A stretch of 45,686 nt of DNA from a virus (lineage: Duplodnaviria > Heunggongvirae > Uroviricota > Caudoviricetes): IMG/VR virus record IMGVR_UViG_2718217885_000013; one strand, given 5' to 3'. The notes beneath the pieces are model-generated. The model was not told the DNA's origin. It saw nothing but the letters and a program-made list of their open reading frames with translations, and made no database searches. The first letter of the stretch is position 1; each line of letters opens with the position of its first letter. Both the position numbers and the translations under genes were made by a program. This document shows positions 7,000-44,667 of the stretch, piece by piece.

Positions 7000-10401
<3,402 letters not shown>

Positions 10402-36898: not shown

Positions 36899-37824
36899 AA
36901 ATCCACCCCATAAATCCAGTCAGTGTTTGTCAGGTCGAGTTTTGATTTTCCGGCTGTCACGCCAGCCTGTTGCTTGTTACGGTTGATTTCGAGCTGGGTC
37001 CACTTGTCGCGGAGTTTGGCCGGACTTAGCACGTTACCGGACCAGAAGTTGTCCTGGCATGCCCAGCGGAACAGCACGCACATGTCGCGGTGGTTACGTC
37101 CGTCACGTTCACGCATCAGGCGGATATCGTTAGCCCACCCTGCAAAATTCGGTTTTCTGGCTGATGGCGCGATGGTCTTCACCATGTCAAACATCCACTC
37201 TGCGGCGGTCAGGTCTTCTGCTGTCCCCCACCTGCTGCCGCTCTGAATTGCAGCATCTGGTTTCTCCACAGGAAGATCGTTTTCTGGTTGGTCAGAGGAT
37301 TCGCCAGAATTCTCGGACGAAAAAGGTTTTATATTGTCTTTTGTTAGTTTGTCTTTTGTGTTTACCTGATTCGGGTAAACGCCTTTACCTGATTTGGGTA
37401 AACTTTTCTTACCTGATTCAGGTAAATTTACCTCTTTCAGGTAAACTTTATTTTTCTTACCTGATTCGGGTAATGTTGACCATTCACTGACCACATTATT
37501 AATGCCGATATTCCGCCCGCTCTGAATAAGAATCCCACGCTTTACCAGAACGCTTTTTGCAGCAGAACACTTGTGCGGCAATATCCCGGTCAACTCGGAA
37601 AGTTGCTCGTTGCTCACCCAATCCAGTTTTTTATTAAAGCCATATGTTTTGCGCATGACAGCCAGGAAGACCAGAAGCTGGTGCTGTGTTAATCCGGCCA
37701 GCATCACAGCTTCCAGCAACTCATTTGCAATGCGCGTATAACCATCATCGAGATCTGCCACGCGCGGCTCCTTTTGTGCCGCATCCGGCACTGGAAAATT
37801 GAATATCTCAGCAGTGTTTGCCAT
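36895..37824 (-). CDS. O: Replication initiator O; alternative upstream start at 37914
   Basis: Lambda O-like N-terminus spacing from MANTAEIFNF with a GGGAGG Shine-Dalgarno; C-terminus conserved; iterons inside the gene; the track ORF begins 30 codons upstream with an ATG coupled to the preceding stop. Confidence 0.8.
   Translation of the reverse strand: MANTAEIFNFPVPDAAQKEPRVADLDDGYTRIANELLEAVMLAGLTQHQLLVFLAVMRKTYGFNKKLDWVSNEQLSELTGILPHKCSAAKSVLVKRGILIQSGRNIGINNVVSEWSTLPESGKKNKVYLKEVNLPESGKKSLPKSGKGVYPNQVNTKDKLTKDNIKPFSSENSGESSDQPENDLPVEKPDAAIQSGSRWGTAEDLTAAEWMFDMVKTIAPSARKPNFAGWANDIRLMRERDGRNHRDMCVLFRWACQDNFWSGNVLSPAKLRDKWTQLEINRNKQQAGVTAGKSKLDLTNTDWIYGVDL
37363..37474. repeat. Replication origin iterons: five copies of about 18 bp (TACCTGATTCGGGTAAAC type) next to an AT-rich stretch (37321-37362)
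   Basis: Direct repeats tacctgattcgggtaaac, tacctgatttgggtaaac, tacctgattcaggtaaat, tacctctttcaggtaaac, tacctgattcgggtaat read in the sequence, inside O. Confidence 0.85.
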
Positions 37825-37910
37825 AATTCCTCCCGCAATGAGTGTGTTACGATTTGCACCTGAAAGTCGGTTCTGTTCCCGCAGACCGACTTTCGCCATT
37901 TCTGAACCTG

Positions 37911-38450
37911 TCATATTGCCCCCAGCATGGTGGTCACCATCGCCATTAATGGACCAGCCAGATCCGGGTCCACACGAAACATCGACACAATACCTTCACT
38001 CATTTCCTTCAGTTTCTGGTGGCGTGGTGCGTTGAGAATGACAGCCTGTTTTGCCTCACTGAGTTCCTTTTCCATTTCAGCCAACCGAGTCATGAAGCTA
38101 TCCTGCTCAACCAGGTAACCGCGATATTCCAGCGGTAGTACCGCCAGAATTGCCGGGGTCAGTTCACGCACGTTATTTCGGTATTTTTCAGAATCGAATT
38201 TGTTATCGAGGAAGCGGAACAGCTTCTGGCGTGCACGGCTGACATCATCAGGGAAATCGATGGTGCCGTCGCCCTGCTCCCGATACTCATTCACAATGAG
38301 TGCGGCAACGACATCCTGATTATCTACAGCCGACCAGGCGCGGACGGCATCACGGATTTTTTCGTGGCCTGGAGCTTGTTTTGTTTGAGAACGATTTATC
38401 ACCGCAGTCGGAATAAATCCGCTAGTCTGTTGGTATGTAAGTGGTTGCAT
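37911..38450 (-). CDS. YdaT-like protein in the cII position
   Basis: 179 aa; AAGGAG Shine-Dalgarno; segment LTPAILAVLPLEYR recalls Rac YdaT; downstream of the Cro-like gene. Confidence 0.55.
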   Translation of the reverse strand: MQPLTYQQTSGFIPTAVINRSQTKQAPGHEKIRDAVRAWSAVDNQDVVAALIVNEYREQGDGTIDFPDDVSRARQKLFRFLDNKFDSEKYRNNVRELTPAILAVLPLEYRGYLVEQDSFMTRLAEMEKELSEAKQAVILNAPRHQKLKEMSEGIVSMFRVDPDLAGPLMAMVTTMLGAI

Positions 38451-38519
38451 AATTGACTCCTTTAGTTTGAATTGACTGTTAAGTTGATTGCTTATTGTTA
38501 AAGAGCGTGAAATGGAAAT

Positions 38520-38750
38520 TTAAGCTGCGTTCTTTTCGGTGTGTGGAAACAACTTCGGAAGATCCGGGCGAATCTGGTATGCCTTCACAACTCCACCAGT
38601 AGCCGTAACAATGCTGCCGACATGTTCAGGGGATACCTTTGCTTTGTTGTGAAGCCACTTATAGACGGCCTGCTGTGAAACTTCGCAGGCATCGCCTAGT
38701 TTCTTTTGTGAACCAACGATATTGATCGCTGTTTTGATTGCTGGGTTCAT
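38520..38750 (-). CDS. Cro-like HTH regulator (YdaS-type)
   Basis: 76 aa with HTH (GSQKKLGDACEVSQQAVYKWL); divergent from cI; GGAGG Shine-Dalgarno. Confidence 0.75.
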   Translation of the reverse strand: MNPAIKTAINIVGSQKKLGDACEVSQQAVYKWLHNKAKVSPEHVGSIVTATGGVVKAYQIRPDLPKLFPHTEKNAA

Positions 38751-38854
38751 AACAACCTCCGTGGTTAATCCGAATCAAGATTAAAACTATGGTTGTTTTT
38801 AGTCAACAACCATTTTCGTTTGATGAAATAAAACCTTGGTTGTACATTTGATCT
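38751..38854. promoter_or_regulatory. Right operator/promoter region (OR, PR, PRM)
   Basis: Repeated GGTTGTT/AACAACC half-sites including palindrome ATGGTTGTT-N7-AACAACCAT (38789-38813); candidate PR (TTGACT-17-TAATCT, minus strand) and PRM (TTGATG-17-TACATT, start near the cI ATG, implying a leaderless cI mRNA). Confidence 0.7.
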
Positions 38855-39544
38855 ATGAAAACAACACTCTCAGAAAGACTTAAAGAAGCCAGATTAGCGC
38901 GAGGCCTTACACAAAAGGCGCTTGGGGATTTGGTCGGGGTTAGCCAGGCTGCTATTCAGAAAATCGAAACAGGGAAAGCTAACCAAACAACTAAAATCGT
39001 GGAGATCGCGAACGCTTTGGGTGTGCGCGCAGAATGGTTATCTTCTGGCGTTGGAAATATGTCAGACAGTACAGTGCAACCAATACAATCAACTGTCAGC
39101 CATTCCAAATACTTCAAAATTGACGTTCTTGATATAGAAGTCAGTGCCGGGCCAGGTGTAATCAACCGTGAGTTTGTAGAAGTTCTACGCTCGGTTGAGT
39201 ACTCGTTTGACGATGCTCGTCACATGTTCGATGGCAGGAAGGCGGAAAATATCCGCATCATTAACGTGCGAGGTGACAGCATGTCAGGGACGATCGAACC
39301 AGGTGACCTGCTGTTCGTTGATATCACTGTTAAATCTTTCGACGGTGATGGCATCTATGCGTTTCTGTACGACGACACTGCCCATGTAAAACGTCTTCAA
39401 ATGATGAAGGATAAGCTGCTGGTTATCTCTGATAACAAGAGCTACTCGCCGTGGGACCCGATCGAGAAAGACGAGATGAACCGGGTGTTCATATTCGGTA
39501 AGGTCATTGGAAGCATGCCGCAGACGTACAGGAAGCATGGTTAA
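38855..39544 (+). CDS. cI: CI-type repressor (HTH plus LexA/S24 autocleavage domain)
   Basis: 229 aa; N-terminal HTH (LTQKALGDLVGVSQAAIQKIETGK); C-terminal S24-like region with GDSM and a later Lys. Confidence 0.9.
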   Translation: MKTTLSERLKEARLARGLTQKALGDLVGVSQAAIQKIETGKANQTTKIVEIANALGVRAEWLSSGVGNMSDSTVQPIQSTVSHSKYFKIDVLDIEVSAGPGVINREFVEVLRSVEYSFDDARHMFDGRKAENIRIINVRGDSMSGTIEPGDLLFVDITVKSFDGDGIYAFLYDDTAHVKRLQMMKDKLLVISDNKSYSPWDPIEKDEMNRVFIFGKVIGSMPQTYRKHG

Positions 39545-39773
39545 TTTATCTACGACTTAAGGGAGCGAAGGTTAAGGTTTATACCACTCGGATTAGATAT
39601 TGCACTAAATTCTCTATAAGAACGCCAAATCTGTTTGCATATTTCAGTAAATATTCTCGTTGTTAGCTGAGATTTGTTGCTACTGTCAGCAAAATGTCCC
39701 CCTATCTCGTAGCGGTTTTTATTTCGAATCATTATGTTAAGATGTTTCTGATTATAATGAATGGAAACATAAA

Positions 39774-40154
39774 ATGAGAAAAATCCTAATCGCTGTCATG
39801 ATGGCATCTGTATTGGCTGGGTGTGCTTCTTCAGGCAACCAGCAACTCAAAAATGAAACTGAAATTAGTGTCCAGTCTAAACTTCAGGAAGGTAAAACAA
39901 CCAAGAATGAGGTTAAATCTTACTTTGGTTCTCCTGATGCTGTTTCATATACTGACAGTGGAAACGAGATCTGGAAGTACGCCTTTGCAAAAGTAAAAGT
40001 TAATGGCACCACTTTTATTCCATTCTATGGATTATTCCATAATGGAACGAACGGTACGAAAAAAGAACTTACTATTCTTTTTAACGATGACACGATTAAG
40101 AAATACACAATGTCAGAAACCCAAATAAACTCGAAATCAGGTTGGGCTGACTGA
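39774..40154 (+). CDS. Lipoprotein with BamE (SmpA/OmlA)-like pattern, in the rex position
   Basis: 126 aa; lipobox LAGC; pattern G-K-T-x-x-E-V...FGSP...W-x-Y...LTILFN resembles BamE; has its own candidate -10 TATAAT at 39753-39758. Confidence 0.6.
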   Translation: MRKILIAVMMASVLAGCASSGNQQLKNETEISVQSKLQEGKTTKNEVKSYFGSPDAVSYTDSGNEIWKYAFAKVKVNGTTFIPFYGLFHNGTNGTKKELTILFNDDTIKKYTMSETQINSKSGWAD

Positions 40155-40162
40155 TAATCATA

Positions 40163-40189
40163 CCCGGCAACCGCGCCGGGTTTTCTTTT
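40163..40189 (+). terminator. Intrinsic terminator after the lipoprotein gene (end of the cI operon)
   Basis: CCCGGC-aaccgc-GCCGGG followed by TTTTCTTTT. Confidence 0.7.
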
Positions 40190-40280
40190 CCTCCCCCTCA
40201 TAACTCATACCGTCCAAAAAACCACCACACCTCACTTCAGTTATCGCTATGCGATGCAAGTCACAAAATAAATCCATCCT

Positions 40281-40357
40281 AAATACAACCAGTTATATTT
40301 AAAACAACCGACAAAACAACTTTTGTTGTTGACGATAAAACAACTATAGTTTTAAAT
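40281..40357 (+). promoter_or_regulatory. Left operator/promoter region (OL/PL)
   Basis: The same AACAACC/GGTTGTT half-sites as OR, including AACAAC-tttt-GTTGTT at 40315-40330; candidate PL TTGACG (40329-40334)-17-TTAAAT (40352-40357). Confidence 0.65.
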
Positions 40358-40361
40358 AAAT

Positions 40362-40413
40362 TCATCGCAACGACACAACGATACGGTAACCACCTGTTTC
40401 ACCGTTGCGATGA
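40362..40413 (+). other. Large hairpin (11-bp perfect stem, 29-nt loop) at the predicted 5' end of the PL transcript
   Basis: TCATCGCAACG ... CGTTGCGATGA read in the sequence; function unknown. Confidence 0.4.
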
Positions 40414-40634
40414 CCACTTAGATCCGCAGTTTGAATTTCAGCAGGCTTCGGGGAGTGCGAGGGGTGAAGCGGACGCGTGAACGTCGGTGTGACCAGCTGA
40501 AATCAACTCAACACTTCATACCTCAGTCGCTTCAACGAGGCGACTTAGTTATGACAACCGGCGGCCATCCACCGCCTGAATACGCGCAGAAGTCTCTATA
40601 TGTTCAGCAGCCCAGCTTACGGGCAGGAGTTTTT

Positions 40635-40841
40635 ATGGTTCATCAACATTACGGAACGCAGACCGTTAATCGAGGTGCGGTCATGCCAGGAATGCTGGTC
40701 AAACACAAAGATGGTACCTGGACTGCATCAGCTAATTTACGCGGACGGCTTTATCTGCATCGCGGCATCGAGCGCACTTATACCCGTGATTTGCTCGTGG
40801 AAGTTTTTCTCGACGGACGCGGTAACGGCCTGAATCGCTAA
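40635..40841 (+). CDS. Hypothetical early-left protein in the kil position; start uncertain (alternatives 40551 or 40431)
   Basis: ATG at 40635 has an AGGAG Shine-Dalgarno 5 nt upstream; the track ORF begins at a TTG; lambda homology resumes exactly at this ORF's stop. Confidence 0.4.
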   Translation: MVHQHYGTQTVNRGAVMPGMLVKHKDGTWTASANLRGRLYLHRGIERTYTRDLLVEVFLDGRGNGLNR

Positions 40842-40916
40842 TCCCCTTTCCTGTTTTCCTAATCAGCCTGGCATTTCGCGGGCAATATTTTCACAGCCAT
40901 TTTCAGGAGTTCAGCC

Positions 40917-41213
40917 ATGAACGCTTATTACATTCAGGATCGTCTTGAGGCTCAGAGCTGGGCGCGTCACTACCAGCAGATCGCCCGTGAAGAGAAAGAG
41001 GCAGAACTGGCAGACGACATGGAAAAAGGCCTGCCCCAGCACCTGTTTGAATCGCTATGCATCGATCATTTGCAACGCCACGGGGCCAGCAAAAAAGCCA
41101 TTACCCGTGCATTTGATGACGATGTTGAGTTTCAGGAGCGCATGGCGGAACACATCCGGTACATGGTTGAAACTATTGCTCACCATCAGGTTGATATTGA
41201 TTCAGAGGTATAA
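40917..41213 (+). CDS. gam: Gam, host RecBCD inhibitor (short GamS form)
   Basis: 98 aa near-identical to lambda GamS ([21 protein letters not shown]). Confidence 0.95.
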
Positions 41214-43681: not shown

Positions 43682-43703
43682 ACATGAAAAGCAAAATCAT
43701 CAG

Positions 43704-43726
43704 GGAGCTACAGGCTCCTTTTTTAT
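43704..43726 (+). terminator. Intrinsic terminator after the exo-methyltransferase block
   Basis: GGAGC-tacag-GCTCC followed by TTTTTTATT. Confidence 0.45.
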
Positions 43727-43779
43727 TGTTCGCATTCATCCTCAAGCGTATTAACCAACAATTCAGGGATTAATGGAAG

Positions 43780-44045: not shown

Positions 44046-44324
44046 ATGTTCAGAATCATTTTTCCTAACACCTGGTACGTCGACCACCACGGCACTCCCT
44101 GCAAAATCCTGCGTTCTACCCACAACAAAGTTCACTACATCCGAAAAGGCAGAACATGTATCGCCAGCATGTTCCGCTTTAATCATGACTTTGAACCTGT
44201 GAATAAAGCTGATGCAGATCGGATAGCAGAAGAGATCGAAACGGCAGAACACATTAAGAAGTTACGTGACATGCGTTCAAAAAGCAGAGGTAACCATGGA
44301 ATCATACAGCCTCACACTCGATGA
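44046..44324 (+). CDS. Hypothetical phage protein
   Basis: 92-aa ORF; no family recognised. Confidence 0.5.
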   Translation: MFRIIFPNTWYVDHHGTPCKILRSTHNKVHYIRKGRTCIASMFRFNHDFEPVNKADADRIAEEIETAEHIKKLRDMRSKSRGNHGIIQPHTR

Positions 44325-44667
44325 GGCCTGTCAGTTTCTTAAGATATCCAGACCAACCGCCACCAACTGGATACGAACAGGCCGCCTACAGGCAACACGT
44401 AAAGATCCAACCAAGCCAAAATCTCCTTACCTCACAACACGGCAAGCCTGCATTGCGGCGCTTCAGTCTCCGCTGCATACTGTCCAGGTGAGCGCGGGTG
44501 ATGGCATAACAGAGGAAAGAAAATGTCACTCTTCCGCAGAAATGAAATATGGTATGCCTCGTATTCGCTCCCGGGCGGGAAACGAATTAAGGAATCTCTT
44601 GGCACAAAGGACAAGCGGCAAGCTCAGGAGTTGCACGACAAGCGAAAAGCAGAACTCTGGCGAGTAG
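44296..44667 (+). CDS. xis: Excisionase-like HTH protein; 3' end overlaps int, true C-terminus uncertain
   Basis: [31 protein letters not shown] is a typical Xis/AlpA-type HTH; GAGG Shine-Dalgarno; immediately upstream of int. Confidence 0.6.

Follow-up and report, generated by a model that had tools for sequence, protein, structure and literature searches.

An Escherichia coli prophage, analysed here as one stretch of 45,686 nucleotides (nt) from IMG/VR record IMGVR_UViG_2718217885_000013 (the window), carries an RNA module of about 95 nt shortly behind its early-left promoter PL, which we call element X. Conservation and compensatory base changes make it very probable that X is a selected, structured RNA module specific to the PL transcript. 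Its role can be stated more tentatively: we give a little less than an even chance to the reading of X as a processive antiterminator RNA that acts in cis, similar in action to the put RNA of phage HK022 and not homologous to it. The original prediction, made from the letters of this DNA, had pointed to a perfect hairpin at the predicted start of the PL transcript as a possible cis-acting antitermination RNA of the put kind. Such a function is still the best lead, but the hairpin is not the conserved unit, and the module in which base pairs covary is X, at 40409-40503.

Results

Conservation and structure of element X

X was compared in 48 copies from IMG/VR, in annotated phages and in E. coli genomes. 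Together with more distant copies, three sequence types are known, A (the type of the window), B and C, which align without a single gap and share 60 invariant columns. Type-A copies are mutually 95-99% identical, and the divergent types B and C come from other viral contigs (L097 and L251-L268) and from a prophage of Scandinavium hiltneri (L200). Nucleotide diversity (pi) within type A is 0.025, which is approximately that of the first and second codon positions of the neighboring gene kil (about 0.03), while the two proxies for neutral sites, the third codon positions of kil and the spacer between kil and gam, both have a pi of 0.10, four times that of X.

The same two abutting imperfect hairpins, stem-loops SL-2 and SL-3, were obtained with RNAalifold, with single-sequence minimum free energy (MFE) folding and by inspection of the alignment by hand. 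Over 22 distinct sequences 99.2% of the cells of this model pair, five pairs are doubly changed, and several more change to or from G-U. In SL-2, where about 99% of cells pair, the compensatory double changes are 36-59 (GC/AU), 38-57 (AU/CG/GU) and 39-56 (GC/AU/GU), with compatible one-sided changes at pairs 26-66, 29-63 and 40-55 (alignment columns; the window coordinate is 40390 plus the column). SL-3 has double changes at 79-98 (AU/GU/GC) and 83-94 (AU/GC), and its apical loop is swapped wholesale between the types, with the stem kept: where type A has CGUGAA, type B has AAUGGAGA and type C UGAGAG. The basal helix of SL-3 (columns 70-75 with 102-108) is uninformative because it is nearly invariant. 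The covariation score was reached by none of 500 shuffles, and when partners were slid by one to three columns pairing fell to 49% or less. Several of the changes yield G-U pairs, which are workable on the plus strand only, and this indicates selection at the level of the RNA on the PL strand.

An earlier model with a long-range helix (40435-40445 with 40493-40503) was abandoned, since the SL-2/SL-3 model has three more covarying pairs and is predicted by both RNAalifold and MFE folding. A pseudoknot between loop and tail (40435-40441 with 40497-40503), in which only wobble changes occur, is possible. A stem P1 enclosing GAUGACC was rejected as well, because its pairing register varies between the types.

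Distribution and position of X

Searched with a covariance model of X, the window and each of 42 loci gave exactly one copy, and HK022, HK639, phi80, phiEt88 and 76 other lambdoid loci gave none. Rfam has nothing at the locus, either in a scan of the whole window at gathering scores or in a scan of 37800-41000 at E <= 10. A 17-mer scan of genome contigs gave almost exclusively chance matches in GC-rich genomes, the sole real one being the prophage of S. hiltneri, and a metagenome scan for X returned two already known types only. Among complete E. coli genomes the element is common: a 341-nt query covering PL, leader and X was matched in 2,231 of 5,426, and 2,044 of the complete genomes (38%), O157:H7 and ST131 among them, have one match that spans at least 80% of the query. 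Phages with X are viable isolates, for example Perceval and PhiR26_1, the latter of which grows on MG1655 and is 98.7% identical to the window.

In every case X lies in the PL leader, 45-70 nt past a PL-type promoter, and in the window it begins about 45 nt past the inferred start of transcription. At least six unrelated operator sets occur upstream of it, including phi80-like and HK022-like ones, and the first gene after it also varies: in the window it is kil, elsewhere an HNH nuclease, a TerB-like protein, an HK639_45 homologue or small Cys-rich proteins. Only 131 nt separate X from kil in the window, where the whole 270-nt leader is constrained (pi about 0.03). In types B and C X stands 1-2 kb from kil, ahead of unrelated genes, and so it is not a kil-specific regulator. 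Many type-B phages (L200 at 7030-7490; L251, L253, L257-L262) have about 450 nt of G-rich sequence poor in open reading frames (ORFs) after X; this stretch opens with a tiny ORF (MKH-stop) and may be another structured leader.

Comparison with put and nut

The place occupied by X is filled differently in related phages. Contig L266 agrees with HK639 in the PL start, in about 55 nt on the 5' side and in a 3' flank running into the same downstream gene; what lies between these shared flanks is, in HK639, the core of the annotated putL-like antiterminator RNA and, in L266, X. In phiEt88 a PL closely like that of the window, with the same transcript start, is followed by HK022-type putL. Phi80, which shares with the window both the transcript start and a junction sequence described below, has there nutL and N, a lambda-type system annotated by Rotman et al. 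that occupies the same slot between PL and the first early-left genes. Since HK639 and L266, phiEt88 and phi80 fill one slot in different ways, nut with N, put and X are three alternative cassettes, and the presence of X exactly where relatives have HK022-type put argues for a second, unrelated terminator-ignoring RNA.

Rfam is without a put model and gave no matches on HK022, HK639 or phiEt88. A put covariance model (R2) was trained on putL and putR of HK022, putL of HK639 and putL of phiEt88. As a positive control it found the putR of phiEt88, on which it had not been trained, with 58.7 bits and E = 2.5e-18. Its best match in the window has E = 1.6 and lies away from X, and nothing was found in nine X-bearing loci. 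Homology of X to put was rejected on these grounds, the model being blank at X in spite of the independent control.

The likeness to put (putL and putR of HK022, the putL-like RNA of HK639), whose members are cis-acting RNAs that bind the zinc-binding domain of the RNA polymerase beta' subunit, is one of place and general layout. Both lie close to the promoter on PL transcripts of lambdoid phages that have no N, and for X, as for put, two abutting imperfect stem-loops are predicted, an agreement in outline. The stem-loops of X cover about 84 nt (about 95 with the module) against about 73 nt in put, their internal loops are unrelated, and X begins at about +45 to +70, whereas put begins at +3. 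HK022 and phiEt88 have a twin of put on the side of the early-right promoter PR, and X has none. HK639, like the phages with X, has a single copy on the left side only, which means that a second copy (putR) is not universal in the put family either.

The 3' flank common to HK639 put and X types B and C includes a boxA-like GCUCUUUG within a CAGC...GCUG hairpin. It is present in L249 (10188-10250, minus strand), L097, L256 and L264-L267, falls inside the 'putL-like' annotation of HK639, and is absent from the type-A sequence of the window.

Promoter, operators and transcript start

The operators OL in front of PL are two 19-nt direct repeats (40309-40327 and 40333-40351) with AACAAC/GTTGTT palindromes. 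The PL/OL sequence GTTGTTGAC..AACAAC.ATAGTTTTAA is repeated at PR and its operators OR, on the minus strand at about 38780-38815 on the other side of cI, and the -35 and -10 boxes, the spacer and the operator repeats of PL match those of PR nearly base for base, so that the two are paralogous. On this sequence evidence the assignment of PL is secure.

We infer that transcription from PL starts at about A40364, because promoter geometry, a shared start sequence and a homology boundary agree. The sequence from A40364 onward, AUCGCAACGACACAACGAU, is a variant of AUCGAAACGAAACAUCGA, the start that follows the annotated or evident PL of phi80, HK639 and phiEt88; the transcript start AUCG(A/C)AACG and the promoter geometry are common to phi80 (which has an annotated pL), HK639 and phiEt88. 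The start in the window also aligns with that of the HK022 PL RNA (AUAGACG; residues A3-G7 are AGACG), and homology to heteroimmune phages begins at 40364/40365. PL transcripts of phages with nut (phi80), with put (HK639 and phiEt88, more loosely HK022) and with X thus open with related AUCG(A/C)AACGA(A/C)ACA, and this shared initial transcribed region (40364-40382 in the window; also L004, L249, L248 and L003) can fold a small 5' hairpin.

The hairpin at the transcript start

The hairpin of the original prediction, here H1, is indeed a perfect 11-bp stem at the predicted PL start: its arms, 40362-40372 (TCATCGCAACG) and 40403-40413 (CGTTGCGATGA), are 11 nt long and 100% complementary. They enclose 30 nt and not the 29 first given. 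Chance predicts 0.01 occurrences of this arm pattern in the window, which has one, and the RNA fold of 40358-40420 reaches -19.2 kcal/mol, compared with -7.5 +/- 2.1 for shuffles (z = -5.5). With +1 at A40364 the stem in the RNA would have 9 bp beginning from the first transcribed base, with no free 5' nucleotide.

Within the H1 region conservation is limited to the transcript start and the right arm; the loop, with a pi of 0.108, is at the level of neutral sites. The covariation check that had been proposed for this hairpin, when run across relatives, did not support it: across 14 distinct type-A sequences 88% of cells pair, but shuffles did as well in 391 of 500 cases, and the arms do not covary more than the composition of the columns would give. 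The innermost pair is an A-C mismatch in most type-A copies, and PhiR26_1 has an uncompensated mismatch in the middle of the stem. The stem is mostly retained in the O157 and MEI4B variants in spite of different loops, for which reason H1 is probably real but confined to one subtype; in types B and C it is absent and other 5' modules take its place. H1, SL-2 and SL-3 are able to form together, since the only part of X that the right arm overlaps is the unpaired GAUGA at the 5' edge of the module. H1 is more likely a type-A-specific 5'-terminal stem that would protect the 5' end or aid folding than the seat of the activity itself.

The further suggestion that H1 could be an additional operator found no support. 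Its arms are unlike the operator repeats, and behind unrelated operator sets the right arm stays unchanged, and the left arm either differs in its first bases alone or has diverged but retains most of the pairing.

Absence of an N gene and extent of kil

The original prediction stated that no N-like gene follows PL, and all our results are in accordance with this. The ORF at 40431-40841 matches the Kil family only, and the match is confined to its last 68-76 residues: PHROG 294 covers residues 60-135 (E = 1.8e-38), and NF008465 covers residues 69-133 with E = 1.3e-16 and 60.3 bits, which is under the curated 92-bit cut-off of that model. PGAP (NCBI) annotates a kil of 207 nt starting at ATG 40635. 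None of the other early-left ORFs of the window matches an N family in PHROGs, the annotation of PhiR26_1 contains Q and no N, and a tblastn search of 70 X-bearing loci for an N-like protein found no match to the N query sequences used. A homologue of N identified by sensitive search, the finding that would have spoken against the prediction, thus came neither from the profiles in the window nor from these loci. On the PL side there is also no boxA within three mismatches in 40360-40640 and no boxB-like short hairpin, in which the window differs from the N/nut arrangement.

An arginine-rich, N-like ORF is obtained when the kil frame is extended to a TTG or GTG start, and the original prediction had remarked that the arginine-rich stretch arises only from such a TTG reading. 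We rejected this candidate: the profiles cover the Kil part only, and the extended frame is interrupted by TAA in the relative MEI4B and, in X types B and C, by a TGA directly behind CAGCAGG; in L121 it has 2 nt fewer. The stretch is non-coding, and the arginine-rich reading is an artefact of translating a G-rich RNA element. Profiles, PGAP and the stops in relatives agree and support a kil of 207 nt from 40635. In GenBank records PV340555.1 and OV696612.1 the annotated kil, with a length of 378 or 420 nt, runs over the RNA element (window 40464-40841).

The PR side, junction sequences and terminators

A paralogous element on the PR side had been suggested as another check; neither H1 nor X has a PR-side copy in the window. 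The PR transcript does have a perfect rrn-type boxA, GCTCTTTAACAA, at 38495-38506 on the minus strand, 13 nt past the cro stop and the only exact 12-mer in the window, but this likeness to Nus antitermination concerns the PR operon and is absent from the PL leader. There is no boxB hairpin and no N gene beside it. In other loci this boxA is found only with the same immunity module; as it tracks that module and not X, it was dismissed as an obligate partner of X.

Downstream of X lies a mosaic junction element of two hairpins, with a 28-nt stretch identical to phi80 sequence 3' of the N terminator. Its 23-mer ATGACAACCGGCGGCCATCCACC occurs in phi80 and in more than 120 IMG/VR contigs, where it comes after many unrelated genes, and it is therefore wrong to take it as a marker of a position just after N. 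HK639 has its GGCGG-CCATCCA-CCGCC hairpin as well, there with a U tract behind it and annotated as a terminator; the copy in the window is without the U tract.

Further along the PL operon, upstream of a TraR/DksA-like gene and the excisionase, a consensus scan marked a terminator-like hairpin at 43702-43728, which would be a natural test site for PL antitermination. In L097, L251, L252, L255, L258, L264 and L265 a segment shared with HK639, with the strong terminator AACCCGCTCCGGCGGGTTTTTT, lies downstream of X.

Prophage setting

The window is a lambda-like prophage, and the queried segment is 100% identical to the chromosome of E. coli 09-00049. Along the plus strand the order is the gene at the Cro position, cI, a moron, OL/PL, the 270-nt leader, kil, gam, bet and exo, followed by small genes, the TraR-like gene, excisionase and integrase (Table 1). 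The BamE-like lipoprotein moron between cI and OL/PL has the position of rex in lambda, and relatives hold other cargo there; one O157 strain, for example, has a SIR2 protein. YdaS-family and YdaT-family proteins take the places of cro and cII (37911-38750, minus strand), like in the Rac prophage. Far from this region, at 2378-2576 on the minus strand, Rfam IS009 (RF02111) gave a full-length match (227.9 bits, E = 6e-56).

Table 1. Features of the early-left region and its surroundings, in window coordinates.
Feature	Position	Strand	Evidence or remarks
YdaS-family gene, Cro position	38520-38750	-	
S24 cI repressor	38855-39544		
BamE-like lipoprotein moron	39774-40190		with its own intrinsic terminator
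OL operators and PL promoter	40309-40357	+	-35 TTGACG 40329-40334, 17-nt spacer, -10 TTAAAT 40352-40357
H1, inverted repeat with 30-nt loop, X type A only	40362-40413	+	11 bp in DNA, 9 bp in RNA (40364-40372 with 40403-40411)
Inferred PL +1, A of AUCGCAACG	40364	+	7th base past -10; shared start sequence
Element X, conserved leader RNA module of about 95 nt with single-stranded 5' motif GAUGAC	40409-40503	+	gapless alignment, low pi, slot swap
SL-2, first stem-loop of X, apical loop AAUUUCAG	40415-40457 (columns 25-67)	+	single-sequence MFE and RNAalifold consensus
SL-3, second stem-loop of X, apical hairpin 40469-40488	40460-40498 (columns 70-108)	+	RNAalifold, MFE, covariation
Mosaic junction element	40516-40576	+	hairpin 40516-40554 and GGCGG-CCAUCCA-CCGCC 40560-40576
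kil (FtsZ inhibitor), first gene of the PL operon	40635-40841	+	profiles, PGAP; Shine-Dalgarno AGGAG upstream
Terminator-like hairpin with T run	43702-43728	+	consensus scan, 8 pairs then TTTTATTGTT; pattern match only
Excisionase	44266-44667		3' of the terminator-like site 43702-43728

Discussion

If X is an antiterminator, it would probably act in the following way. Transcription from PL would start at about A40364, and the first 140 nt of the RNA would fold as H1 (40364-40411), SL-2 and SL-3, the last two forming, together with the conserved unpaired segments, a mobile leader module. Having folded behind the polymerase just past PL, X would bind that same polymerase in cis and make it resistant to termination without any phage protein, as is the case with the put RNA of HK022 and HK639. 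The genes of the early-left operon, from kil through gam, bet and exo as far as xis, would then be readable without N.

Several points weigh against this reading. Both the antitermination activity and the cis mode are argued from position and context, with the absence of N. X resembles put in no detectable way in sequence or structure. Its fold is thermodynamically ordinary (z = +0.3 against shuffles), the three sequence types provide few independent events, and the sequences used to score the structure are those that served to derive it. In the window kil directly follows X and the only terminator-like site, a modest one, lies about 3.2 kb downstream, so antitermination is less clearly needed here than it is in types B and C. 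Having no PR-side copy, X cannot explain antitermination of the right operon. The core sequence of X was not found in the literature searched; King et al. 2011, which may already describe X, falls outside that scope.

The conserved leader could be attributed to other functions. Stem-loops at the very 5' end stabilise E. coli mRNAs, as in the 5' untranslated region (UTR) of ompA, and H1 likewise pairs the first transcribed nucleotides. H1, X and the hairpins downstream could accordingly form a 5' UTR that controls mRNA stability or translation, shielding the transcript from RNase E and tuning toxic kil, with no effect on processivity. The closeness of X to kil in the window and the constraint on the entire leader fit such a role. 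The resemblance to ompA covers H1 alone and not X, however, and H1 is missing from types B and C; moreover, a stability leader leaves unexplained why X and put are exchanged so exactly in the background of HK639, and we consider it unlikely. A site similar to nut, at which X would recruit a trans-acting factor, either a phage protein encoded elsewhere or some factor of the host besides core RNA polymerase, would account for the position of X, which is that of nutL in phi80, and for its long invariant unpaired segments (GAUGAC, the apical loop AAUUUCAG and the G-rich stretch). The perfect boxA on the PR side suggests that the phage probably uses Nus factors. No gene, however, travels with X across the loci: first genes, immunity modules and cro/cII types all vary, none of the 70 loci has an N-like match, and in the window no boxA adjoins X. 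We regard recruitment of this kind as somewhat less probable still.

It could also be argued that X has no function at all and is a hitch-hiking part of a mosaic leader or a remnant of a lost N module, its conservation reflecting recent spread among E. coli prophages. The small number of types, the near identity of type-A copies and the ordinary folding energy agree with this, and the neighboring junction sequences are widely shared too. Both stems are nevertheless kept by compensatory changes, diversity is a quarter of that in adjacent third codon positions and the kil-gam spacer, X is retained with sharp module boundaries behind many immunity types, and it has no similarity to nutL or N of phi80. 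Absence of function is thus improbable. The least likely explanation, to which we assign only a very small chance, is that H1 itself is the antiterminator or an extra operator. It is a strong hairpin at +1, putL likewise begins a few bases from +1, and the MEI4B and O157 variants mostly retain the stem around different loops. Pairing in H1 is not above chance, though, and is broken by the A-C mismatch of most type-A copies and the uncompensated one of PhiR26_1; H1 is missing from types B and C, whose X occupies the same slot, and the arms do not resemble the operator repeats and persist behind unrelated operators.

Antitermination in cis by X therefore stays our preferred, though tentative, explanation, and its consequences would reach beyond this prophage. 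RNA-only processive antitermination in phages is essentially one known family, put of HK022 and its homologues, and a 2025 review of Rho-dependent termination gives put as the sole example of RNA-mediated polymerase modification in phages. With somewhat lower confidence than for the activity as such, we propose that X could represent a second class of RNA-only processive antiterminators, structurally unlike put, which loads at PL and replaces N in a large group of lambdoid prophages. This would also correct database annotation, in which several GenBank records run kil across the X element. If the proposal is true, X would be a second, independent RNA solution for structural comparison on RNA polymerase, present in thousands of E. 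coli prophages including those of O157:H7 and ST131 strains, and it would explain how recombination and excision genes are expressed in very common lambda-like phages that have no N.
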